A stretch of 64,000 nucleotides of DNA, from positions 1,664,001-1,728,000 of the forward strand of contig CBDETK010000013.1 of NCBI GenBank assembly GCA_965242865.1. Reading direction: 5' to 3'. How positions within the stretch are numbered: the first letter of the stretch is position 1; every line of letters begins with the position of its first letter. This document shows, in pieces, positions 5,788-56,385 of the stretch. The notes under the pieces were generated by a model. That model did not search any database. It was given only the letters and a program-made list of their open reading frames with translations, and was not told where the DNA came from. A program made the translations under genes and the position numbers. Source of the DNA: Candidatus Latescibacterota bacterium (GTDB lineage Bacteria; Latescibacterota; UBA2968; UBA8231).

Positions 5788-6953
5788 TAGGGCCGCTCCT
5801 CGTCCCAAGCCGGCGCCACGACCAACAGGGCGTTGGCCACCGGCCGCTCCCCCGTGGGGTCCGAGGGCGTGTTGACCACCTGCTCGCCTACGACCATGGT
5901 CGTCGAGCCGCCGCCGTCGAGGTTTAGGCCCTGATAGGCATTGGCCTTGGCGTGGGAAAAATCGGCCAAGCGCGTGCGCATAAATTCGGCCAACTCCCGC
6001 AAACTCATGCCCTCGCTGTACCCGGGTTGCCGCCCATCGACCACAATCAGAAATAGCACTTGCTCGTCTTGAGAATAGCCAACGGCCGTGCGCGGGTGTC
6101 GCTTGTCGGCAAAGCTGCGGCTGAGCCGCTCTTGTTCCACTTCAATAGATACGTTGCCATCGCGCAGGATGCGCGGCCCGCCGCTGACGGCCTCCATCAG
6201 CTTGGCGCGGGCTGGCAGCAGCCGGCAGTACAGTTGCACGGTGTCGCCCAAGGCGACCTGTTCGGTTGCCGCGGACCCGGCGCCAACGGCCAACAGCCAC
6301 TGGTCCGGCTGGAGGACGAGCGGCCAAGCCTGCCGCCGGACTTGCTGGACCCAAACCGAGATCGTGTCGTTGGCAATGGAGGTGGCGCCCAACCCTTGCA
6401 ACAGGAAGCCCGTGGGGGCATGCAGGGAATCGCCCTGCACCTGCGCCCGGTCGTTGAACACCGCCAGTTCCCCTGGGGCCGGCTCGCGGTTAAAGCCCGC
6501 GATGGGCAGGGGCTCGCCTTCGGCGGTCAACAGGCCCAATTCCATCTTGTACACGGCGATCAAGGGCTGGCCGAGCGCCGTAATGGCAAAGGCCGAGCGC
6601 CGCTGGGGGACGCGGATGAGGTTGCCGGACTCGATGTACAAGCCGGCCGGCCGACCGGCCTCCCCGGGAAACAAAAAGTCCCCATTTATGGCGGCTAAGG
6701 CGCCGGCGGCCAAGTGGCTCGTCTTTCGCGCCTCGGCCTGCTTGGCCGTGCGCACGCGGATGCCCGCGGCCCAAGAGCGCGGCAGGTCCACTTCCACTAT
6801 ATGGATCTGCCACGGTCCTTCGGGCAGGTGAATCTCGCGGTACACTACCCCGGGCGCGAGCTCCGCGGTGTTTTCCCGGGCGCAGCTCCAAACCAAGCAC
6901 CACGCGAGAATCGAGAGGACGAGGCGCGTGGACGCGCCGTGCAATATAGGCAA
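5787..6953 (-). CDS. Phosphodiester glycosidase (NAGPA-like) exported protein
   Basis: AAINGDF, GGPRIL, HPRTAVG, VDGRQ, LNLDGGGSTTM, RPVANAL; N-terminal signal-like segment. Confidence 0.9.
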   Translation of the reverse strand: MPILHGASTRLVLSILAWCLVWSCARENTAELAPGVVYREIHLPEGPWQIHIVEVDLPRSWAAGIRVRTAKQAEARKTSHLAAGALAAINGDFLFPGEAGRPAGLYIESGNLIRVPQRRSAFAITALGQPLIAVYKMELGLLTAEGEPLPIAGFNREPAPGELAVFNDRAQVQGDSLHAPTGFLLQGLGATSIANDTISVWVQQVRRQAWPLVLQPDQWLLAVGAGSAATEQVALGDTVQLYCRLLPARAKLMEAVSGGPRILRDGNVSIEVEQERLSRSFADKRHPRTAVGYSQDEQVLFLIVVDGRQPGYSEGMSLRELAEFMRTRLADFSHAKANAYQGLNLDGGGSTTMVVGEQVVNTPSDPTGERPVANALLVVAPAWDEERP

Positions 6954-6998
6954 GAGAAGCGGACCTCAGTGGCAAGGGGACGGCGTTAAAACGGCCCA

Positions 6999-7027
6999 AA
7001 GGTAGCTTTGCGCTGCAACCCTGTCAA
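6999..7027 (-). promoter_or_regulatory. Sigma70-type promoter for the leftward operon
   Basis: Minus strand TTGACA (7027-7022), 17-nt spacer, TACCTT (7004-6999), in the divergent intergenic region. Confidence 0.6.
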
Positions 7028-7099
7028 TTTTTTCCAGCCACTGGCCCGGCCACCGGCCAAACCCTTTATTGTATATAAATGAAAGGAGAAAGGATGCCC

Positions 7100-8107
7100 A
7101 TGAAAGCCATAGTCGTAGGGTTGGGTGGCCGGGGCCGCTATTGGCTCGACCAATGCAAACAGCAGCCCGGGGTTGAGGTGGCCGCCTGCGTCGAGCCGGA
7201 CCCCCAAAACAGCTTAAGCGCCCTCTCCGAAGGCGCCACCCAGACCGTCTACCGCGACCTCAGCGCGGCCCTCGCGACCGCGCAAGCCGACTTTGTCCTC
7301 GACGTGACGCCGCCGGCCATTCACGAAGAAGTCGCCATGCAGACTTTTGCGGCCGGCCTCCACCTGCTCGAGGAAAAGCCCCTCAGCGACCGATACGAGG
7401 CCGCCCGGCGCATGGTCGTGGCCGGTGCCCAAGCTGGCGTCGTCCACATGATCACCCAGAACTACCGGTTCAACGGCCTGCCGCGCACGACCCGCCGCCT
7501 GCTCGCCGAAGACCGCATCGGCTCGGTCGGCCAGCTCGACGTCTCCCTGTACGTCAACTGGGCCGACTCGCCCGGCTCGCATTACGTCACCGAGCCGTAC
7601 ATGTTTCTCACGGACATGGGCATTCACCACTTCGACATGATGCGCTACACCCTCGGCCAAGACCCGGTGAGCGCACACGCCCTCACTTGGAACCTCCCCT
7701 GGGGCTGGCACCAAGGCGACGCCGCCCATGTTGTCCTGTTCCGCTTTGCCAACGGCGCGGTTGCCACGCATCGCGGCATCGGCTGCACAGTGGGCCACGT
7801 ACCGGCCGGGCACAACGGCGAGTGGCGTTACGAGGGGCCGCGCGGCACCCTGACGTGGGAGGGCTTTGACCTGTACCACACCCATTCGCACCGCGCTGAC
7901 CCCCCCATTAGACGGCAGGTCCCCCTCGACGACGACGGCACCCCAGGCCAAAACCCGGTGCTGAGCGAATTTGTCGCGGCCATAGAGGAAGGCCGCCCTC
8001 CCGAGTGCAACGCGGCCGACAACCTCAAGTCCATGGCCATGGTGTTTGCGGCCGTCAAAAGCGCGGAGGAAGGCCGGCCCGTGCCGCTGGCCGAGCTCGA
8101 CGCCTGA
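7100..8107 (+). CDS. Gfo/Idh/MocA family oxidoreductase
   Basis: VVGLGGRG, EEKPLS, QNYRF, DMGIHHFD. Confidence 0.9.
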   Translation: MKAIVVGLGGRGRYWLDQCKQQPGVEVAACVEPDPQNSLSALSEGATQTVYRDLSAALATAQADFVLDVTPPAIHEEVAMQTFAAGLHLLEEKPLSDRYEAARRMVVAGAQAGVVHMITQNYRFNGLPRTTRRLLAEDRIGSVGQLDVSLYVNWADSPGSHYVTEPYMFLTDMGIHHFDMMRYTLGQDPVSAHALTWNLPWGWHQGDAAHVVLFRFANGAVATHRGIGCTVGHVPAGHNGEWRYEGPRGTLTWEGFDLYHTHSHRADPPIRRQVPLDDDGTPGQNPVLSEFVAAIEEGRPPECNAADNLKSMAMVFAAVKSAEEGRPVPLAELDA

Positions 8108-8150
8108 GCACCTTGCGCCCAATGGTCTGTTGCCACAGCTTGTTTGCGCT

Positions 8151-9533
8151 ATGACGCTTCGCCTCTTCGACACCTACGCCCGCCAAGCGCGCCCGTTTAA
8201 GCCGCTCGCGCCGCCGCAAGTCCGCTTGTACGCCTGCGGCCCGACCGTGTACAACTACCAGCACATCGGCAACTTGCGCACTTACATCTTTGAGGATGTC
8301 CTGCGGCGCGCCCTCGAATACAGCGGCTATGCGGTCCACCACGTCGTCAACATCACGGATGTAGGGCACCTGACCTCGGACGCGGACACCGGCGAGGACA
8401 AAATGGAGGCCGGGGCGCGGCGCACCGGCCGGACGGCTTGGGAAATCGCCGAGCACTACACGGCCGATTTTCAGGAAAAGCTCGCGTGGCTCAATGTGCG
8501 GCCGCCCCACGTCTGGTGCCGGGCCACCGACCACATCCGCGAGCAGATTGCGGCCATTGCCGCGATTGTGGAAAAAGGCTATGCGTACCGCACGGACGAC
8601 GGCCTGTACTTCGACACCTCGCGCTTGAGCGACTACGGGCACCTCGCCCGCCTCGACATTGCGGGCCTGCAAGGCGGCCAGCGCGTCGAGCTCGGGCAAA
8701 AGCGGCGCGTCACGGACTTTGCCCTGTGGAAGTTCAGCCCGGCCCAAGCGCAGCGGCAGATGGAATGGGACAGCCCGTGGGGGCGCGGCTTCCCGGGCTG
8801 GCACATTGAATGCACGGCCATGGCCGCCAAGTACTTGGGGCCGTACTTCGACATCCACTGCGGCGGCGAGGACCACATCCCGGTCCACCACACCAACGAA
8901 ATGGCCCAAGCCCAAGCCTGCTACGACACGCGGCTGGCCGAGTTCTGGCTCCACGGCGCGTTTTTGCAGCTCGACGGGGAGAAAATGTCCAAGTCGAGCG
9001 GCGACTTCCTGCGCCTCGAATCCTTGGTCGAAGCGGGGTACGATCCGCTCGCCTACCGCTTTTTCTGCCTCGGGGCGCGCTACCGCGCCAAGCTCTCCTT
9101 CACCTACGAGAGCCTGGCCGGCGCGGCCACCGCCCTCGACCGGCTGCGCGCCGCGACCCATGCTTGGGGCGCACCGTCTGAGCCGGATGACCGCTACGTG
9201 GCCGCGTTCAAGGAGCGCGTCGAGGACGACCTCAACCTGCCGCGCGTCCTCGCCCTGTGCTGGGAACTGGTGGCCGACGATCGCCCGGCGGCCGTCAAGA
9301 AGGCTACGATCTTGCACTTCGACCAAGTCATGGGCTTGGGGCTGGCCGCGTGGACGCCGCAAGAGGCGGCCGTACCCGAGGCGATAACCGCGCTCGCGGC
9401 CCAGCGGCACCAAGCCCGCGTTGCCAAGGACTGGGCCACGGCCGACGCCCTGCGCGACGAAATCGCCGCGGCCGGCTACGAAATCGAAGACACCCCGCAA
9501 GGCCCTCACATCCGCCCGCGCCCCCCCGCCTAA
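8151..9533 (+). CDS. cysS: Cysteine--tRNA ligase
   Basis: YACGPTVY, HIGN, GFPGWHIEC, DIHCGGEDH..HHTNE, KMSKS, C-terminal AD.LRDEI motif. Confidence 0.97.
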   Translation: MTLRLFDTYARQARPFKPLAPPQVRLYACGPTVYNYQHIGNLRTYIFEDVLRRALEYSGYAVHHVVNITDVGHLTSDADTGEDKMEAGARRTGRTAWEIAEHYTADFQEKLAWLNVRPPHVWCRATDHIREQIAAIAAIVEKGYAYRTDDGLYFDTSRLSDYGHLARLDIAGLQGGQRVELGQKRRVTDFALWKFSPAQAQRQMEWDSPWGRGFPGWHIECTAMAAKYLGPYFDIHCGGEDHIPVHHTNEMAQAQACYDTRLAEFWLHGAFLQLDGEKMSKSSGDFLRLESLVEAGYDPLAYRFFCLGARYRAKLSFTYESLAGAATALDRLRAATHAWGAPSEPDDRYVAAFKERVEDDLNLPRVLALCWELVADDRPAAVKKATILHFDQVMGLGLAAWTPQEAAVPEAITALAAQRHQARVAKDWATADALRDEIAAAGYEIEDTPQGPHIRPRPPA

Positions 9534-9547
9534 CCGAACGGACGCCC

Positions 9548-11035
9548 ATGGCCCGCATCCTCGTCGCCGAGTGCAAGCAAGAAATCTCTTCCTTCAACCC
9601 GATCATCGGCGCGTACGACAATTTTTCCATCCGCCGCGGCTCCGAGCTGCTCGCCTATCACCAAGGCCGCGAGACCGAGCTGACCGGCGCCTTGCAGGTC
9701 TTTGCCGACAGCCACGTGGAAGTCGTGCCCACCTACGGGGCCTGCGCCCCCTCGGCCGGGCCGTTAGACCAACGGGCCTTTGAGCGCATTGCCGCCGAGC
9801 TCCTCGACGCGGTCGTGCCGCACCTCGCGGACGCCGATGGCCTGTACTTTTGCCTGCACGGAGCTATGGGCTGCACCGAGGAGCTCGACCCGGAGGGGTA
9901 CTTGCTGCAACAGATTCGCCTGAGGGCCGGTCCCGACTTCCCCATCGTGATCTCGCAAGACCTCCACGGCATTCTCACCGAGCGCATGCTGGAGCACTCA
10001 AACGGCCTCGCCATGTATCACACCTATCCGCACGTGGATTTGGCCGACACGGGACGCCGCGCCGCGTACTTGCTCCTCCAAGTCCTCGCCGGTGCCCAGC
10101 CCGTGGTGGCCCGGGTGCGAATTCCCGCGCTCGTGCGCGGCAACGAACTCATCACGGCCTCGGGCGTGTACGGCGAGTCCATCCGCTACTGCCAAGCCCT
10201 AGAGGAGCAGCCCGACATCCTCGCGGCCGGCGTGTTGATCGGCAACCCGTTCACCGATGTGCCCGAGCTGTGCTCGCAAGCGGTCGTCGTGGCCGATGCC
10301 GACCCAGACCTCGCCCGCAGCGAGGCCCTCCACCTCGCCGCCAACTTCTGGGACCGCCGCGCCCTCATGCAGCCCGACCTCGTGTCGGTCGAAGACGCCG
10401 TAGCCCAAGCCGCCCAATACAGCGGTCCCGTGCTCTTTACCGATGCGGCCGACGCCCCGTCCTCGGGCGCGACCGGCGACAGCAATGTGCTCCTCCAAGC
10501 CCTACGCGCCAGCGGGTACTCGGGCCGAGTGCTCGCGCCGCTGGTGGATGCGCCCGCCGCGTACATGGCCCACGACGCCGGGCTGGGCGCCCGCATCCGC
10601 GTGGTTTTGGGCGGCTCGCTCGACTCGCGCTTTTCCCCGCTCGACCTAGCCGTTGAAGTCGCCCAACTCGGCGACGGCGAATACGTCTGCGAATCTTGGA
10701 ACACGCCCCAACACGCCGGGCCTACGGCTGTGCTAGCAAGCGATGAGTTCACCATTGTCTGCGTCAGCCGCTCAGTGCCCTTTATCGATCGCTCGGTCTT
10801 TATGGCCCACGACCTCAACCCCAAGGACTACGATCTCATCGTCATCAAGTCGCCGCACTGCCAGTGGCACTTTTTCGACGAGTGGGCCGAGATAAACTTC
10901 AACATCGACGCCCTCGGCTCGACCAGCGCGAACTTGCCTACCCTCGGGCACCGCGTCTGCCAGCGGCCCATGTACCCGCTCGAACCCGAGGCCCCCTTTA
11001 CCCCGGTGGCCGAAATGTTCGGCGCAGGAGCGTAA
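9548..11035 (+). CDS. M81 family metallopeptidase (MlrC-like)
   Basis: QEISSF, LHGAM, DPEG, DLHG, TYPHVD, DAADAPSSGATGD, VIKS. Confidence 0.88.
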   Translation: MARILVAECKQEISSFNPIIGAYDNFSIRRGSELLAYHQGRETELTGALQVFADSHVEVVPTYGACAPSAGPLDQRAFERIAAELLDAVVPHLADADGLYFCLHGAMGCTEELDPEGYLLQQIRLRAGPDFPIVISQDLHGILTERMLEHSNGLAMYHTYPHVDLADTGRRAAYLLLQVLAGAQPVVARVRIPALVRGNELITASGVYGESIRYCQALEEQPDILAAGVLIGNPFTDVPELCSQAVVVADADPDLARSEALHLAANFWDRRALMQPDLVSVEDAVAQAAQYSGPVLFTDAADAPSSGATGDSNVLLQALRASGYSGRVLAPLVDAPAAYMAHDAGLGARIRVVLGGSLDSRFSPLDLAVEVAQLGDGEYVCESWNTPQHAGPTAVLASDEFTIVCVSRSVPFIDRSVFMAHDLNPKDYDLIVIKSPHCQWHFFDEWAEINFNIDALGSTSANLPTLGHRVCQRPMYPLEPEAPFTPVAEMFGAGA

Positions 11036-11038
11036 CTT

Positions 11039-11800
11039 ATGCCCGCCATCAAACAATCCGTCTGCTTCAATCCCTTCACCGCCCGCGGCCTCAGCCCGCG
11101 GGAATTGATCGCGGCGGCCGCGCGCATCGGCTACCAGTCCGTAGAGATGGCCCCCCGAGAACACTGGCCGCTCATCCAAGACCACGGCCTCGCCATCGCC
11201 ATTGTCGCCGGCCATGCTTCCCTGCCCGACGGGCTCAACAAGCCCGAAAACCACGACCGCATCGAAGACGAGCTCCTCGCCCACTGCGACCTCGCCGTTG
11301 AGTACGGCATCCCCTCGCTGATTTGCTTTTCTGGCAATCGCGAGGGCCGGTCCTCCGAAGAGGGGCTGGCCCACTGCGTCGCTGGCCTGCGCCGCGTCAC
11401 CGGGGTGGCCGAGGAAAAAGGCATTACCCTCTGCATGGAATTGCTCAACTCGCGCGTCAACCATCCCGACTATCAGTGCGACCGCACCGCTTGGGGCGCG
11501 GCCTTGTGTCGGGCCGTGGGCTCGCCCCGGTTCAAGCTCCTCTACGACATCTACCACATGCAGATCATGGAAGGCGATCTCATCCGCACCATCACCGAGC
11601 ACATCGACTGTATCGGCCACTTCCACACCGCCGGCAATCCCGGCCGCCAAGACCTCGACGATCAGCAGGAGATTTACTATCCGCCGATCATGCGGGCCAT
11701 CGCCGCCACTTCCTACGAAGGCTACGTCGGCCACGAGTACCGTCCCAAGGCCGACCCCCTTGACTCCCTGACCCACGCCTTCGCCGTCTGCAATGTCTGA
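11039..11800 (+). CDS. Hydroxypyruvate isomerase-like TIM-barrel (AP_endonuc_2) protein
   Basis: ELLNSRVNHPDY, LYDIYHMQIMEGD, GHFHTAGNPGR, VGHEY. Confidence 0.88.
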   Translation: MPAIKQSVCFNPFTARGLSPRELIAAAARIGYQSVEMAPREHWPLIQDHGLAIAIVAGHASLPDGLNKPENHDRIEDELLAHCDLAVEYGIPSLICFSGNREGRSSEEGLAHCVAGLRRVTGVAEEKGITLCMELLNSRVNHPDYQCDRTAWGAALCRAVGSPRFKLLYDIYHMQIMEGDLIRTITEHIDCIGHFHTAGNPGRQDLDDQQEIYYPPIMRAIAATSYEGYVGHEYRPKADPLDSLTHAFAVCNV

Positions 11801-12227
11801 AGTACCTATCGCACCCACCAGCGGTGTGCTCGGCGCAGCGATCGCAAGGGGCGACCCGTCCTCGAAAACCGCCCGACCATGCACCGCCGCCTCGCCTTCC
11901 CCCCACCAACGCACTCAGGTTTTTAACGACGAAATCCCGACGGAATAGGACCTTCTAATCATCATTAGATAGAATACGTATTGATACAACAGACATGACG
12001 ATGCACGGGCTAAAGCCTGCGTGTTCCATCCACCTATTGCCTACGGTGAAAGGGCCTTTTAACGCGATGACTCGATGACAGCATATCGCCCAAGGTGCGT
12101 TCGCTTTTACGGGAGCGGCGTAGGGCCATCTGTTTGTCCATGTTGGCCAGCGCGCATAACTTTCTTTCTGCAAGGGCTGCTCGCCTTGACGGATTCGCCC
12201 TTAACTTCTGGTTCAGAAGGAAGGCTA

Positions 12228-50133: not shown

Positions 50134-50499
50134 ATGTCCACCTATCAAAACGCCAAGGCTGCGATCATCACCATCTTGGAGCTTTCGCACGACGCGATCC
50201 ACGTTCACCTCGGATTGATCGTGTTTTTTGCGGCCGTAGTCCTTTGGAAAAAAGGCTCGATTGAAGCGCGCTGCTTGATCCCGGTGGTCATTGCGGCCTC
50301 CTTGATGGAGGCTTTCGATCTGGGCGACGATTATACCTATCTGCATTACTTTCGCCAGACAGCCCTAGAGGCCAGTATCCACGATCTACTCAATACCCTG
50401 TTTTGGCCGGTGGTCATCGTCATACTGGCTCGGCTCGGCCAATGGAAGAACGATCGGAAGGAAGGCCTAGCGATGGAGGAATTTGATGGGCAAAACTAG
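50134..50499 (+). CDS. Small membrane protein (VanZ-like H/E/D pattern)
   Basis: DAIHVHLG, ME..D, SIHDLLNTLFWP; three hydrophobic segments. Confidence 0.6.
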   Translation: MSTYQNAKAAIITILELSHDAIHVHLGLIVFFAAVVLWKKGSIEARCLIPVVIAASLMEAFDLGDDYTYLHYFRQTALEASIHDLLNTLFWPVVIVILARLGQWKNDRKEGLAMEEFDGQN

Positions 50500-53278
50500 G
50501 GGGATACCCGCGTGGTTGGTCCTCGTGGCCTTGGTCGCGCCGGCGACCGGGGCAGTAGGCCAGACCCTGGACCGTCGTTTCGGGACCCAGCGCGGTGCCC
50601 AGCTCACCTTTGAGCCCCGAGGGCCGGGCGTCCTCTTCGATGCCCTCGACCCGGCGCTCAAGAAATGGTACGTGCCGCAGGAGCTGTACGTGGATTACGG
50701 CTTTCGCCAGTGGGAGTACTCAAACTACGCCCGCACCCTATACCAGCGCTACGTCAACACCAACCGCCAAGGCGGGCCGTTTTACGACCTGTACGGGAAT
50801 TACCAGACTTGGGGTTGGTTGATTTTCGACTGGAACCAGACGCAACCGGGCCAATTTGGTTCGTCGATATACAAAGACCCCAAGTTCAATTCGTGGTTCA
50901 ACGCCGTCACGGTCTCGTCCGATGCACGCGATCAGTATTACCTCGCGATCACCATTGGCGAGCGCATCCGCACGGCCCTGACGCCGCTGACCTTTTCCAA
51001 GCCGCGCTTCAACGGCATCCAGATGGACTTTGCCGCGGACAAGTACGAGGCGACCCTGTTGTTCTCCCGCGCCAGCGAGGCCATCCTCGGCACCACCCCC
51101 GAACGCCAGCCCAGCACCTCGACCAACGCGACCAACATGATGGGGGGCCGGGCCACCGCGCAGGTGGGGGATTTCGTCAAGGTCGGCGCGACGCTGGTCA
51201 ACGCCCATCACTCGCAGACGCTGGCCGAGGCGTTTGAACGCAACCCCCTCGTCGGCACCTTGGGGGCCGAGCAGGGCAGCGACCCGATCCGGGCCATTGC
51301 CATCGTCCTGAGCGACGACTCCCCGGAAGACGGTCGGGGCGGGGCCGCGCTGTTTGCCCACGACATTATCATTACGGCCGAGGATTTCGACACCAAGAAG
51401 CGCACGAAATTCCGCTGGCGGGAGGTGGTGGCCGATCCGACCAAGTGGCCGGTCCTCACCGGCGGCTTCCCCCGGGAGGGCTTTTTGGCGGCCGACGGCA
51501 GCGAGCAGATCGTCATCAACTACGATTTCACGGACTTGGCGTACATCGGTCCTAGGCCGACCGAGATCGTGGATATCCAGTTCGATTTGGTGGTGGCCAA
51601 CGACTACAAAATTCAGGTTTGGTCCGATCGCCAAATCGGGCGCGGCAGCCTGCCCAGTCCGCCGCTTACGAGCTTGGATTTGGAACAAGCCGGGGCCGTG
51701 CTCTTTGACGTCCGCAGCGCGGCCGGCAATGTGACGGACAATTCAAACCAACAGCGCGTAGTCTTTGACTATGGGTTGCCGTCGGCCAACATGGTGTTCG
51801 GGTTTACGCTCGAAGTGTTGCAGTGGCTGGGCTTTGACGCCTATGCCGAGTACGACATCAACCGCGCGTACACCCAGTATCCCAACCTCACGCTCGTCAA
51901 CTCCGATCGCAACCTGAATACCCACGCCCGCGACGCAGCCGCTTGGATGGTCAACGTGTCCAAGCAGGCGTATCCGTTTTTCTTGTTCGGCGAAGCCTTC
52001 AGCATGGACCCGGCGTACTCGACGACCGCGTTTATCGTGGATTCGGGCGGCAGCGTGTATTACGACGACGAGCGCACCTCAGTCTATGAGTTTGTCGATG
52101 ACAACGACGACCAAGACCGCACGCCCGATTGGAGCCGCTGGGGCCAAGGCGGCCCGGACGCAATCGTCTTCCCCGGGTGGGACGAAAACAACGATTTTGT
52201 CTCGGATTTCAACCAGAACGACAACATCTCTCTGAGCAATCGCATCCCGGATTACGAGGAGCCGTTTTTCCGCTACACCGTCGACCGGCCCGAATTCCTC
52301 TTTGGCATCGACCTCAACAACAACAACTGGATCGACCGCTTTGAAAACGACGACTTGCCCGACTACCCCTATCGCCGCAACCACCGGGGCTACAATGTGT
52401 ACGTCGGCCAACACCTGACGCCGGACGCTCGCCTGACCGTCGGGCGGCTGCGCGAGGACGAAATATCCTCCAACCGCCGCAACCACGTGACCTACGGCAT
52501 CTTCGCGTACGACCGCGACCACCCGCGCTGGGGCCGCCTGCGGTTTTTCAATTCCCTGAAAAAGGTCGCCGACGACATCCCGGACATTCGCCGCGAGCCA
52601 ACTCCCGACTTGCAGACGGTCTCGCTGGCCCACGTCGAGGACATCCTGCCGGCGCGGGACACCTGGGTCAACGACAGCTACGTGCAATTCGATTACGCCC
52701 CCGTGCAAAACCTAAACGCGATCAACAAGTTCAAGTACAGCCTGTTCCACCAGCGCGGCACGGCGTTCAAAAGCGGCGACGCGCCCATCCTCAACCAGCG
52801 CACCTATTTTCTGGGGTTGATCAACAAGGCCGATTACACCTACGCGATCGGCCAACTCGTGCTGCAACCCAAGGTCAAAAGCGAATACCTCAACCAGACG
52901 GCCTTTTTGGCGGCCGATCCTGACCGCGAGGAGTGGATGGGCATTGGCATTGTGCAGGCGCGGCTGCCGGTGTTGAACAACTCCTTCCTCGAAAGCGGCG
53001 TGGAGTACTCCATGTTCCGCGAATTGGTCCTCAACGAAGACGCCTTGCTGGCCGCTGGCCCGACCGGGGACACGGGCGATTTTCGCAACTTGGTCTTGGC
53101 CGTGCAGTGGACGACGCTCGGCCACTACTTGGGCTACAAGCTGACCACCCAGTTCGGCCTCAGCTACACCAAGCGATGGGACGAGGCCGTAGTCTTGACC
53201 ACCGAGGGCCTAGTCAAACAAACCGAGAGCCGCTCCTTCGGCACCAGTTTTATCTCAGTGTACGCCGGCGTAGAATAA
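50486..53278 (+). CDS. Large exported/outer-membrane protein of unknown family, paralog A
   Basis: GGAGGA RBS, signal peptide, Asp/Asn loops (DDNDDQD, DENNDFVSD, DLNNNNWID), amphipathic C-terminal strands (SFISVYAGVE). Confidence 0.75.
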   Translation: MGKTRGIPAWLVLVALVAPATGAVGQTLDRRFGTQRGAQLTFEPRGPGVLFDALDPALKKWYVPQELYVDYGFRQWEYSNYARTLYQRYVNTNRQGGPFYDLYGNYQTWGWLIFDWNQTQPGQFGSSIYKDPKFNSWFNAVTVSSDARDQYYLAITIGERIRTALTPLTFSKPRFNGIQMDFAADKYEATLLFSRASEAILGTTPERQPSTSTNATNMMGGRATAQVGDFVKVGATLVNAHHSQTLAEAFERNPLVGTLGAEQGSDPIRAIAIVLSDDSPEDGRGGAALFAHDIIITAEDFDTKKRTKFRWREVVADPTKWPVLTGGFPREGFLAADGSEQIVINYDFTDLAYIGPRPTEIVDIQFDLVVANDYKIQVWSDRQIGRGSLPSPPLTSLDLEQAGAVLFDVRSAAGNVTDNSNQQRVVFDYGLPSANMVFGFTLEVLQWLGFDAYAEYDINRAYTQYPNLTLVNSDRNLNTHARDAAAWMVNVSKQAYPFFLFGEAFSMDPAYSTTAFIVDSGGSVYYDDERTSVYEFVDDNDDQDRTPDWSRWGQGGPDAIVFPGWDENNDFVSDFNQNDNISLSNRIPDYEEPFFRYTVDRPEFLFGIDLNNNNWIDRFENDDLPDYPYRRNHRGYNVYVGQHLTPDARLTVGRLREDEISSNRRNHVTYGIFAYDRDHPRWGRLRFFNSLKKVADDIPDIRREPTPDLQTVSLAHVEDILPARDTWVNDSYVQFDYAPVQNLNAINKFKYSLFHQRGTAFKSGDAPILNQRTYFLGLINKADYTYAIGQLVLQPKVKSEYLNQTAFLAADPDREEWMGIGIVQARLPVLNNSFLESGVEYSMFRELVLNEDALLAAGPTGDTGDFRNLVLAVQWTTLGHYLGYKLTTQFGLSYTKRWDEAVVLTTEGLVKQTESRSFGTSFISVYAGVE

Positions 53279-56200
53279 TGCGACGCAATTCAACCCAGCC
53301 GCCGCCCTTATGGTGCCCCGCGATTTCCCTGCTGTCCATCCTATCCCCGGCGATTCGCCGTTGGGACAGGCCCCCGTTGGGACAGGCCCCCGTTGGGACA
53401 GGCCCCCGTTGGGACAGGCCCCGTTGGGACAGGCCCCGTTGGGACAGGCCCCGTTGGGACAGGCCCCGTTGGGACAGGCCCCGTTGGGACAGGCCCCCGT
53501 TGGGACAGGCCCCCGTTGGGACAGGCCCCTGTTGGGACAGGCCCCCGTGCCTGTCCATCCCCATACCTATCCCCACCCTCATCGCAATCTCCCTCCTCTC
53601 CCTCCTCTCCCTCCTCCTCTCCCCCGCGACCGCCCAACCCGACTACGGCAACCGCCTAGGAACCCACGAAGCCGACCGGGTCTCCTACTACGCCAGCGGC
53701 CCGCTCGTACAGCAGGCGGCGTTGGTCCCGGCGTTGAAGCGCTGGTACATGCCGCAGGAAATGGCCTCGGAATACCGCTACCAGTGGGAGTACACCAACT
53801 ACGCCAAGACGCCCTACCGCCGCTATTTTTCGCCCCAGCAAGAAGGCGATTATTTCTACGACCTGTACGGCCGCTACTTGACCAAGGGGTGGCTGGTGTA
53901 CGACTGGCGGCAGCGGCAGCCGACCAGCTCGGGCGGCTCGGGCCTGCTCAAGCCCGATGGCCGCTACAACTCGTGGTTTAGCAACCTGCTCGTCTCCACC
54001 GACGCCAAGGGCCAGCACTACTTGGGGGTGACGATCGGCGACTTGATCAACACCACGCTGACGCCGATGACGTTCCGCAAAACCCGCTTCAACGGAGTGC
54101 AATTCGACTATGCGGCCGATCGCTTGGCCGCGACCGTGCTGCTGTCGCGGATTAGTCTGCCGGTGCATCAGATCGCTCCCGGGGTGCGCGTCCCGGTGGT
54201 CACGGAAAACTTTACCAATCTGCTCGGCTTCAGGAGCGAGTGGAAGGCCCTCGACGCGGTGCGCTTGGGTGCGACCTTTGTCAACGCCCACAACGGCCGG
54301 GCGCAAGCCGACCGCGGCGGCAACCCGTTCAAGGGCAAGCTGACCAACGGCCAGCTAGAAAACCGCATCAACTGGATCATCGTCCGCATCACGGACGACT
54401 CGCCCGAAGACGGCGTGGGCGGCCCCATGGTTTTCGACCGCGACATTGAGGTCCATACCCAAATCGGCGGCCGCGACACCGTGCTGGTCGGCAGCCGGCT
54501 CGGGTTTCAGCCGCAGGTGGAAGGGGGCACCACGCGCAATGGCTTTCCCGTGGCCGAAGGAGCCGGCAGCGAGGGCGCGATCACGTACCGCTACAATTTT
54601 TCGGCGGCGGACCCGGCCGTGGCGGCGTTGGAAGACCTCGTAGATGACGCCGATTTGGTCAACAACATCACCGCGGTGCGGTTCCGCTTCTTGCTCAACA
54701 ACGATTACCGGGTCGCGGTCACCTCGGATGTCCAGACGGACAACGAGCCGTTGGGGGCCCAATCCAAGTTCTTGACGGTGGTGCGGGCCGCGGGCAATGT
54801 CCGCGACAACTCCAATCAGCAGTGGGTAGTCTTTGACTACGGCTTGCCGACCGCGACGCAGGTTTTTGGCTTCAGTGTTGAGGTCCGCGACTGGGCGGGG
54901 TTTCAGCTATACGCCGAGTACAATGTCAACCACCAGTTCCGGCAGTACCCCAACATCGCGCGCTCAACGCACCGCAGCGCGTCCGGCGTGGTAGGCAACG
55001 AGTCCGCGACCGGCTGGATGATCAACGTCGCCAGAGAATTCTATCCCTTCTTCTTCTTTGGTGAGGCATTCGGCATGGACGCTGAGTACAATACCACGTC
55101 GTTTCTCGTCGATCAGGGCGGGCGGATCAATTACGGCGCGGACGAAGAGGCCCGGTCGGAATTTATCTACGACTTGGTCGACGACAACGACGACAACGAC
55201 CTCCGCCTCGACCAACGGCGCGACAAGGAGGGCTGGGCCGACGAGGCCGTGTTCCCCGGGCTTGACGAAAACAACGACTTCATTTCCGATTTCAACCAGA
55301 ACAATACTTCGGTGCGCCCCAACTTCACGCCCGACTACGAGGAGCAGTTTTTGCGCCACTACGTCGATCGCCCGGAATTCGTCTTCGCGCTCGATTTGAA
55401 CAACAACGGTTGGGGCGAGCGCTTTGAAAACGACGACGAGCCGGATTACCCCTACAAGCGCGACCGGCGCGGGTACAACGCTTACGTGGGGGCGTGGCTG
55501 ACGCCGGAATTGAAGTGGATGGCCGGGCAAGAGCACGTTCAGCGTTTATCGACGGGCGAAAGCAATGTGACCCGCTACGCCCTGCTGGCCTACGAGCGCA
55601 GCTTCCCCCAGGTGGGCAATGCAGCTTTGTACAACCTGTTCAAGGTGGTGCAGGACGACATCGCCGACGACGTGGTTCAGTGGGTGACGGCGCGGCCCGA
55701 GCTGGGCCGACCGCTGGACTCGTCCGGGTCGATGCAGCCCATTGCGGACCCGCTGGCGATGCGCGACGCGGTGGTCAACCGGCTGTGGGCTGGTTTTACC
55801 GGCAAGTCCTACAAGGGCATTCACAGCGAGGGCAAGTTCATTCACGAATTCATTCGGCAGCGCGACGCCAACGCCCGCGATCGCGCCGGTCGCCCGATCG
55901 CCCGCACCACGCGGCGGCTGGGGCTGATCAACCGCTTTGACTACCAGTTCTCGCTGGGCCGGACGGCGATACAACCGCGCTTCAAGCACGAGCTCTTCAT
56001 GGACGACACCCCCTACCACATCGGTCGCCTGACCAGCGCTGCGACCGCCGAGCGCCAAGACTGGAGCGGGATTTTCTCGCTCTTGTTGCGCCGTCCCTTT
56101 TTGAACCGCGTGTTGCTACAGTTGGGCGTTGAGCACCTGATCTTCCGCGATTTTGTCCAAGCCGAGACGGCCGCCGGTGGCTTGCGGGCGGGCGATGTAA

Positions 56201-56385
56201 CCGGGGATTTCGACGAGACATCGCTCGCCGTGCAATTTTCCATTGACAAGCCGTACCTGGGCTATACCCTGCAAACCCTGATGGGGATCAGACTGAGCAG
56301 ACGTCATCTAGAGCGCTTTGAGCAGCCGAGGGCGCGGGAGACGGGCGCGCTTTCCTTTGTGACGGTATATGGCAGCGTCCGCTAA
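53278..56385 (+). CDS. Large exported/outer-membrane protein of unknown family, paralog B, with repeat-expanded leader
   Basis: TAATG coupling to paralog A; shared motifs (PALK.WY.PQE, WEY.NYA, LTP.TF.K.RFNG.Q.D, DDSPEDG, FDYGLP, YPFF.FGEAF.MD, RFENDD.PDYPY). Confidence 0.75.
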   Translation: MRRNSTQPPPLWCPAISLLSILSPAIRRWDRPPLGQAPVGTGPRWDRPRWDRPRWDRPRWDRPRWDRPRWDRPPLGQAPVGTGPCWDRPPCLSIPIPIPTLIAISLLSLLSLLLSPATAQPDYGNRLGTHEADRVSYYASGPLVQQAALVPALKRWYMPQEMASEYRYQWEYTNYAKTPYRRYFSPQQEGDYFYDLYGRYLTKGWLVYDWRQRQPTSSGGSGLLKPDGRYNSWFSNLLVSTDAKGQHYLGVTIGDLINTTLTPMTFRKTRFNGVQFDYAADRLAATVLLSRISLPVHQIAPGVRVPVVTENFTNLLGFRSEWKALDAVRLGATFVNAHNGRAQADRGGNPFKGKLTNGQLENRINWIIVRITDDSPEDGVGGPMVFDRDIEVHTQIGGRDTVLVGSRLGFQPQVEGGTTRNGFPVAEGAGSEGAITYRYNFSAADPAVAALEDLVDDADLVNNITAVRFRFLLNNDYRVAVTSDVQTDNEPLGAQSKFLTVVRAAGNVRDNSNQQWVVFDYGLPTATQVFGFSVEVRDWAGFQLYAEYNVNHQFRQYPNIARSTHRSASGVVGNESATGWMINVAREFYPFFFFGEAFGMDAEYNTTSFLVDQGGRINYGADEEARSEFIYDLVDDNDDNDLRLDQRRDKEGWADEAVFPGLDENNDFISDFNQNNTSVRPNFTPDYEEQFLRHYVDRPEFVFALDLNNNGWGERFENDDEPDYPYKRDRRGYNAYVGAWLTPELKWMAGQEHVQRLSTGESNVTRYALLAYERSFPQVGNAALYNLFKVVQDDIADDVVQWVTARPELGRPLDSSGSMQPIADPLAMRDAVVNRLWAGFTGKSYKGIHSEGKFIHEFIRQRDANARDRAGRPIARTTRRLGLINRFDYQFSLGRTAIQPRFKHELFMDDTPYHIGRLTSAATAERQDWSGIFSLLLRRPFLNRVLLQLGVEHLIFRDFVQAETAAGGLRAGDVTGDFDETSLAVQFSIDKPYLGYTLQTLMGIRLSRRHLERFEQPRARETGALSFVTVYGSVR
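53360..53556 (+). repeat. Tandem array of 12 GTTGGGACAGG-C(4-5) units ending in a REP-like hairpin
   Basis: Counted directly: seven 16-bp and five 15-bp units (53360-53546); the last continues GTGCCTGTCC, giving the hairpin GGACAGGC-CCCCGT-GCCTGTCC. Confidence 0.95.

Follow-up and report, generated by a model that had tools for sequence, protein, structure and literature searches.

Repetitive extragenic palindromic (REP) elements of the GTAG type have been described within genes and in tandem clusters (PMC3733652). In Neisseria opa genes, CTCTT repeats lie in the coding region of the leader peptide, and switching occurs at a rate of about 1e-3 per cell per generation (PMC3960869). Rickettsia palindromic elements (RPEs) are whole elements of ~150 bp that are inserted in frame in many protein-coding genes (PMC10969869). 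Here, we describe a tandem array of 15- and 16-bp units that lies in a 64,000-nucleotide stretch (the window) of the genome of a Candidatus Latescibacterota bacterium. The array combines an intragenic REP with a leader repeat: its units correspond to one arm and the loop of a REP-like hairpin, and they are found in the part of a gene that encodes a predicted signal peptide. The structure is real and unusual.

The elements in this genome resemble the GTAG REPs and the REPtrons of REP-associated tyrosine transposases (RAYTs) (PMC3733652) in being short, GC-rich, species-specific palindromes that are present in many copies, some of them with an unpaired GTAG-type head, and form tandem clusters. 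A single Y1/HUH transposase-like gene may be associated with the hairpins, and some copies are inside open reading frames (ORFs), as in REPtrons. Unlike in REPtrons, one arm and the loop are amplified here, in 15/16-bp arrays of up to 12 units, rather than the whole REP or REPIN. No inverted doublets were seen, a hairpin lies within the coding loop of the RAYT-like gene with a further copy ~150 bp upstream, and the array sits in a signal peptide. Single-arm arrays are not mentioned in the passages of PMC3733652 that were consulted.

Like the opa repeat, the array is a tandem repeat with units that are not multiples of 3, located in the 5' leader-coding region of a multigene-family protein, and a change in unit number would shift the reading frame; the opa product is an outer membrane protein. 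The opa repeat is a 5-mer found across its gene family, with measured switching, whereas the repeat described here is a mixture of 15- and 16-mers from a mobile palindrome, occurs in one paralog of one species, and is known from sequence alone. In common with the RPEs, a palindromic element is translated within a host protein, and the frame and the host gene are otherwise intact. It differs from the RPEs in that the element is a hairpin of ~26 bp, one arm of which is locally amplified, and in that the affected stretch of the protein is probably removed by cleavage. A literature search on REP, signal peptides, and phase variation returned no such case, judging from titles and abstract openings; among the papers listed in a search on Latescibacteria, sponge symbionts, and repeats, titles and abstract openings likewise revealed nothing on such an array.

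Anatomy of the array and of its gene

The array spans 187 bp and consists of 12 head-to-tail units of GTTGGGACAGGCCCC(C), seven of which are 16-mers and five of which are 15-mers. It lies near the start of the second gene of a tandem pair, and its last unit forms the left arm of a complete hairpin. The features of the locus are as follows, in window coordinates.

50483..53278, + strand: upstream paralog of 931 amino acids (aa), first gene of the tandem pair, with an ordinary leader (ORF list and translation).
53278..56385, + strand: array-carrying gene, a 1035-aa ORF; the mature part begins at QPDYGNRLG (residue 119, position 53632; translation).
53278..53352, + strand: first leader copy, MRRNSTQPPPLWCPAISLLSILSPA, residues 1 to 25, the counterpart of the whole ortholog signal peptide.
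53360..53546, + strand: tandem array of 12 units (sequence, Tandem Repeats Finder, and translation).
53377..53379, + strand: in-frame TTG in array unit 2, a possible internal start (frame scan).
53500..53502, + strand: in-frame TTG in array unit 10; initiation at this codon would leave a leader of 44 residues, with the second hydrophobic core retained (frame scan and translation).
53535..53556, unstranded: complete hairpin GGACAGGC-CCCCGT-GCCTGTCC, whose left arm is the last array unit; the same 22-mer is present at 5 other places in the genome.
53551..53583, + strand: third, partial leader-core copy (CTGTCCATCC..CTATCCCC), translated as LSIPIPIPTLI (direct reading; compare 53332-53348).
53584..53631, + strand: second leader core and predicted cleavage motif, AISLLSLLSLLLSPATA, followed by QPDYG (Tandem Repeats Finder and translation).

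Tandem Repeats Finder places the array at 53358-53548, with a period of 16, 12.2 copies, 97% matches, and a score of 340. When cut at GTTGGG, the units measure 16, 16, 16, 15, 15, 15, 15, 15, 16, 16, 16, and 16 bp. The 15- and 16-bp units differ solely in their homopolymer C runs (C4 or C5), and unit 11 ends in T instead of C. The hairpin at the end of the array, the only complete one that it contains, has an 8-bp stem and a 6-nucleotide (nt) loop and is composed of the last unit and the following GTGCCTGTCC. The unit is found far more often than chance would allow, with 47 matches in this genome versus 0 for a reversed-pattern control (at most 1 mismatch). By direct reading, it contains no stop codon in any of the six frames, and the array is translated through all three unit frames in turn, as RWDRP, LGQAP, and VGTGP.

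A preliminary description, made from the sequence of the window, had reported 12 units between two similar hydrophobic segments, a copy of CTGTCCATCC on either side, and a last unit that completes a REP-like hairpin. The array is as it described, and Tandem Repeats Finder agrees: AISLLSILSPA and AISLLSLLSLLLSPA are encoded on either side of it, CTGTCCATCC is present at 53332 and 53551, and the hairpin has the stem and loop given above. Its account of the reading frame also stands. The frame is open from the coupled ATG at 53278, which overlaps the TAA stop codon (53276-53278) of the upstream gene, to 56385, and beyond this ATG no in-frame ATG or GTG occurs up to residue 158. The two other frames stop at 53657 and 53979, and the frameshift predicted on addition or removal of one 16-mer or one C would indeed lead into one of these stops. 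Absent from the earlier account are the two TTG codons listed above, both inside the array, which are the only canonical in-frame starts between 53278 and residue 149. The proteins encoded by the two genes of the pair are 40% identical across 959 aligned positions.

Next to the first leader copy comes ATTCGCC; the array follows, and then the hairpin's right arm, the partial core copy, and the second full core. The last six bases of the right arm, CTGTCC, are shared with the native CTGTCC of the leader core, and this coincidence suggests a junction at a microhomology. The best 11-residue Kyte-Doolittle mean is 2.06 for the first core and 2.61 for the second, and two ortholog leaders reach 1.84 and 2.12. 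The linker between the cores has 74 residues, including 16 Arg, 8 Asp, and 18 Pro. A position of the array inside a signal peptide, with the hydrophobic core duplicated around it, is well supported. Within the second core, Tandem Repeats Finder also detected a 9-bp repeat, TCTCCCTCC (3.2 copies at 53588-53616). This pyrimidine repeat encodes the SLL repeats of the core and is a second slippage-prone tract in the leader, of the in-frame type.

Searches for other signals around the array gave no matches to Rfam-type known RNA families at an E value of ≤1 in 53000-53900 and none to sigma-70-like promoter or intrinsic-terminator patterns in 52900-53800. We also considered the possibility that the flanks belong to a larger mobile element and rejected it, as BLAST of both flanks against the genome returned only chance-level matches of 13 to 17 nt. 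The preliminary description had further suggested that the minus strand could form G-quadruplexes. This idea gained no support from ViennaRNA (DNA parameters), admittedly a weak test, in which the minimum-energy hairpins of both strands were identical with and without the G-quadruplex option.

A family of REP-like hairpins and a single RAYT-like gene

The preliminary description had proposed that the array is an amplified left arm of a REP-like hairpin and had suggested a genome scan for the unit and for a RAYT gene. In the genome of the window DNA (G000), the scan found the unit again, together with a family of hairpins, GTAG heads, and one RAYT-like gene, all in keeping with that proposal. 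The exact unit is present 12 times in the array and 3 times at 3385158-3385202 of C13, one of the contigs of this genome, and 6 loci have the complete hairpin in which GGACAGGC is the arm. A G variant with a compensatory stem change, GGGCAGGC...GCCTGCCC, has ~31 copies. More broadly, a genome scan identified 72 hairpins with a CCCCGT loop and an 8-bp stem (at most 1 mismatch) versus 4 with the control loop TGCCCC. The members of this family have many different stems that differ by compensatory changes, and their heads are ACCGTAG[GA] or CGTTG. There are 40 exact matches to GGRCAGGCCCCCGTGCCTGYCC in the genome, and the ACCGTAG[GA] head is present in 5 of the 7 hairpins with left arm GGACAGGC. 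A GTTG head replaces GTAG at both loci with unit arrays and in 30 of the 72 family hairpins. Together, these results make an origin of the array from a REP arm a well-supported interpretation of the sequence.

The family is restricted to a single lineage: among the 31 genomes of the genus that were searched, G000 alone yielded the unit and the 22-nt hairpin. REPs of the GTAG type, imperfect palindromes of 20 to 40 bp, lie mostly outside genes, often as inverted doublets (REPINs). In this genome, hairpin copies are arranged mostly as head-to-tail tandem units of 37, 41, or 57 bp, and inverted doublets were not seen. The copies in the leader and in the RAYT-like gene are intragenic. At ~20 loci on C13 (e.g., 2789578, 3988745, and 4747692), one to five head-to-tail 37-bp units of the G-variant hairpin sit just upstream of a conserved region of ~0.5 kb and a multicopy lipoprotein gene (MSSLKSMKTLFAF...).

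The genome contains one match to Y1_Tnp, a 256-aa protein with an HUH motif (IMPNHLHGIIII). Its gene lies outside the window.

G000, contig C13, 3384702-3385469, - strand: RAYT-like (Y1/HUH) gene (Pfam Y1_Tnp match).

The Pfam match scores 37.7 bits against a cutoff of 23. The NCBIfam model REP_Tyr_transpos scores 63 bits, under its cutoff of 80, as a long low-complexity loop interrupts the match. This loop follows the HUH motif and contains VGTGP three times, encoded by three in-frame units, and then a hairpin; the 15/16-bp variation in unit length recurs in this array. Another family hairpin is located ~150 bp upstream of the gene, and none is present downstream by the 8-bp stem criterion. 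In four relatives, the RAYT-like genes (loci L025, L027, L028, and L029) carry GTAGGGGC...-type palindromes of their own in the same loop.

The RAYT-like genes show several additional features. The right arm of the palindrome is duplicated in L029, and L027 has two hairpins in inverted orientation. In G000, the loop is also swollen by in-frame tandem runs of PTTI and GPAT, which place the halves of the Y1 domain ~90 residues apart. A weak RAYT-like fragment with two stops (E value of 1.5e-4) is present at C13:1604453-1604650 on the minus strand, where it overlaps a family hairpin at 1604481; further family hairpins lie around it at 1605319 and 1600770. This fragment may be a decayed second REPtron.

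Relatives of the array-carrying gene

The preliminary description had also suggested a comparison with orthologs, which showed that the array is absent from all those examined. Orthologs are 88 to 91% identical over residues 2 to 918 of the mature query. In all 10 readable loci of the 11 found, a plain leader of ~20 to 28 residues directly precedes QPDYGNRLG, as in MMRRGSTKGTRMWWAAVCLLAGLVPAGA followed by QPDYG, and the start codon, ATG or GTG, either overlaps the upstream stop or lies directly next to it. The eleventh locus, L012, falls outside the reading pattern, and its 953-aa open frame leaves no room for a long leader. The repeat is also absent from the 21 closest database proteins whose N termini were examined; five of these are ~93% identical over the mature part and have the leader MRRDATKGPRIGWAVVCLWAGLTPASA. 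No shorter protein fragments matching residues 1 to 130 were found at an E value of ≤0.001 among 6969 candidates. Within this genome, none of the 30 other paralogs has a leader repeat and all have ordinary leaders, so that the array is present in 1 of 31.

Searches of nucleotide collections, which, like the protein fragment collection, may omit the window's own genome, yielded no matches to the two-unit array pattern in metagenome contigs or genome contigs and none to the right-flank 29-mer in metagenome contigs. In a relative-rate count, 19 to 27 residue changes were unique to the array protein, versus 23 to 27 in its array-free sisters, depending on the outgroup. The mature part is intact and appears to evolve normally, with no sign of relaxed constraint in its sequence, although a recent insertion would leave none either.

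The family to which the protein belongs has ~30 members per genome, each of ~920 aa, and tandem pairs are seen. It was found in each of the 18 other genomes drawn from the same genus, but in none of 12 that represent two other families. Neither protein of the pair matched a Pfam or NCBIfam family; the only hit was a subthreshold match to Extensin_1 (20.8 bits versus a cutoff of 105), which is due to the array repeat itself. Homologs are labeled at their source as hypothetical proteins from metagenome-assembled genomes of Latescibacterota or Gemmatimonadota. A protein-atlas lookup returned unnamed clusters only, with a TonB-dependent-receptor-like barrel family at 0.89 as a lead and no more. 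The 10 sequencing runs (4 studies) that contain the locus are labeled as sponge metagenome or as coded organisms. The family is large, probably surface exposed, and carried by a host-associated bacterium.

Arm amplification at other loci

Arm arrays are present at further places on C13. At 5278028-5278203, 11 units of GCCCCCGTGCCAATCA (16 bp), corresponding to the loop and right arm of a hairpin with a different stem, TGATTGGC, lie in intergenic DNA between a stop codon and the start of the next gene. Approximately six right-arm units are found at 1177797-1177870, a 24-bp unit is repeated 4.9 times next to a hairpin at 3400304-3400420, and the left arm of a G variant is duplicated as two units at 1453154. 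The presence of such arrays in both coding and intergenic DNA indicates that amplification occurs whether or not the DNA is coding. CCGT borders the left arm on both sides, at the foot of the hairpin and in the loop, and this direct repeat would be enough to start slippage. We also considered the register of the units as evidence for transposase nick sites between C and GT. It does not discriminate between the two origins: the flanks fit slippage at CCGT equally well, and the 37-bp arrays are without that register.

Origin of the array and its consequences for the gene

An accidental REP insertion, followed by slippage and tolerated in a cleaved leader, is probably the best account of these observations; frameshift-proneness would then be a by-product and not an evolved switch. 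A species-specific, GTAG-tagged REP-like hairpin would have landed in the signal-peptide DNA of one member of the ~30-copy family of predicted envelope proteins. Twelve copies of its left arm and loop (15 to 16 bp) would then have arisen, for which replication slippage is the simplest mechanism, and the hydrophobic leader core would have become duplicated around the array. With a present total length that keeps the frame and a unit that is free of stops, the gene would still be translated from the coupled ATG. The resulting leader of 118 residues would consist of the first core, a Pro/Arg-rich linker of 74 residues, and the second, stronger core with its motif for cleavage between ATA and Q.

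Under the positive-inside rule, an arginine-rich linker should stay in the cytoplasm. If this one does, the second core would act as the signal, with cleavage between ATA and Q. Export would thus be driven by the second core, and the whole extension would be cut off with the leader, which would explain why the insertion was tolerated. Long, near-identical tandem units are generally unstable, and the array-carrying gene is therefore probably prone to frameshifts.

Several considerations weigh against this account. Export by means of a 118-residue leader with two hydrophobic cores would be unusual, and the first core, which is predicted to be as hydrophobic as the signal peptide of an ortholog, could lead to a wrong membrane topology. 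That the frame is intact across a hypermutable array could also mean that the ON state of a genuine switch has been selected; by chance, it would survive in 1 case in 3. Slippage and amplification by a transposase would leave indistinguishable sequences. In addition, the 15/16-bp difference lies in C4/C5 runs, which are miscalled by some sequencing chemistries.

The preliminary description had regarded the array as a candidate phase-variation switch. As an evolved contingency locus, the array would be maintained because changes in the number of 16-mers or in a single C make expression of the pair's second gene alternate between ON and OFF at a high rate. The 7 of 12 units that are 16 bp long, not a multiple of 3, would suit such a role, as would the fact that ribosomes starting at the conserved coupled ATG have to read through the array, with the other frames ending early at 53657 and 53979. 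The intact frame, the mature part without relaxed constraint, and the membership of the protein in a large, probably surface-exposed family of a host-associated bacterium are also consistent with a switch, and opa provides a precedent for repeats in a leader-peptide coding region (PMC3960869). However, the array is present in only 1 of 31 paralogs, in none of the orthologs examined, and in one species only. Moreover, arrays of the same family are found in intergenic DNA, where switching is impossible, so amplification occurs without selection for switching. The in-frame TTG codons within the array could also bypass a switch. On this balance, we consider an evolved switch unlikely.

It is more doubtful still that the array is an artifact or the gene is dying, that is, that the C-run lengths or unit number were misassembled or that export is already destroyed and the open frame is a recent accident. 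The confinement of unit-length differences to homopolymer C runs, the 1-in-3 chance of keeping the frame, and a leader far longer than that of any homolog examined would each fit this explanation. However, the 16/15/16 pattern is arranged in blocks of 3, 5, and 4 units and is not scattered, and the 187-bp array lies in a 5.6-Mb contig and was hence spanned by the assembly. The same unit and the same 15/16 variation are also found at a second locus, in frame in the RAYT-like gene, and amino acid changes on the branch of the array protein are not in excess.

We give similarly little credence to a proposal that assigns the amplification to the RAYT-like enzyme. The units would be single-stranded DNA segments between two nick sites of this HUH enzyme, excised and rejoined in tandem. 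The nicks would fall between C and GT, one of them at the foot of the hairpin and the other in the CCCCCGT loop, which is conserved. Arrays would arise in this way throughout the genome, including in the enzyme's own gene, and the one in the leader would constitute a transposase-fed, reversible frameshift switch of a host-facing surface protein of a sponge symbiont.

Least likely of all is a translation start inside the array at TTG 53500 (or 53377). In that case, the first leader copy and the array would form a spacer between the two genes, either untranslated or translated on its own, and the upstream frame would be irrelevant. Both TTG codons have GGGACAGG at a distance of 6 nt upstream. 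Because the 3' end of the array has three consecutive 16-mers, one unit's TTG is, arithmetically, in frame with the mature part whatever changes occur farther upstream, and the 44-residue leader would retain the strong second core. However, the orthologs keep an ATG that overlaps the upstream stop, the n-region of the leader from TTG 53500 is weak, with one R and one D ahead of the core, and no promoter-like site is present in 52900-53800.

The genome offers a case in which a REP-type palindrome serves as the seed of minisatellites, with one arm and the loop amplified at several loci and one of the arrays retained in frame within a signal peptide. Should the array prove to vary among members of the population, it would provide a new route to a phase-variable surface protein through long, mixed 15/16-bp units of a mobile palindrome. 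We know of no such switches in this uncultured, host-associated phylum. An invariant array, by contrast, would illustrate the amount of additional sequence that is tolerated in a cleaved leader. In both cases, testable handles on recognition by this class of enzyme are provided by the CCCCGT loop, which is conserved while the stems vary freely, and by the hairpin in the RAYT-like gene's own loop.

Other repeat-rich regions

Two further repeat regions on C13, at 3522934-3525849 and 4797574-4800543, have Tandem Repeats Finder periods of 72 to 77 bp with conserved cores of ~36 bp and resemble two CRISPR arrays. A small contig of the same genome, C3 (17.5 kb), has an unusually high density of tandem repeats at 6068-12198, with periods of 15, 18, 25, 30, 48, 62, and 66 bp.

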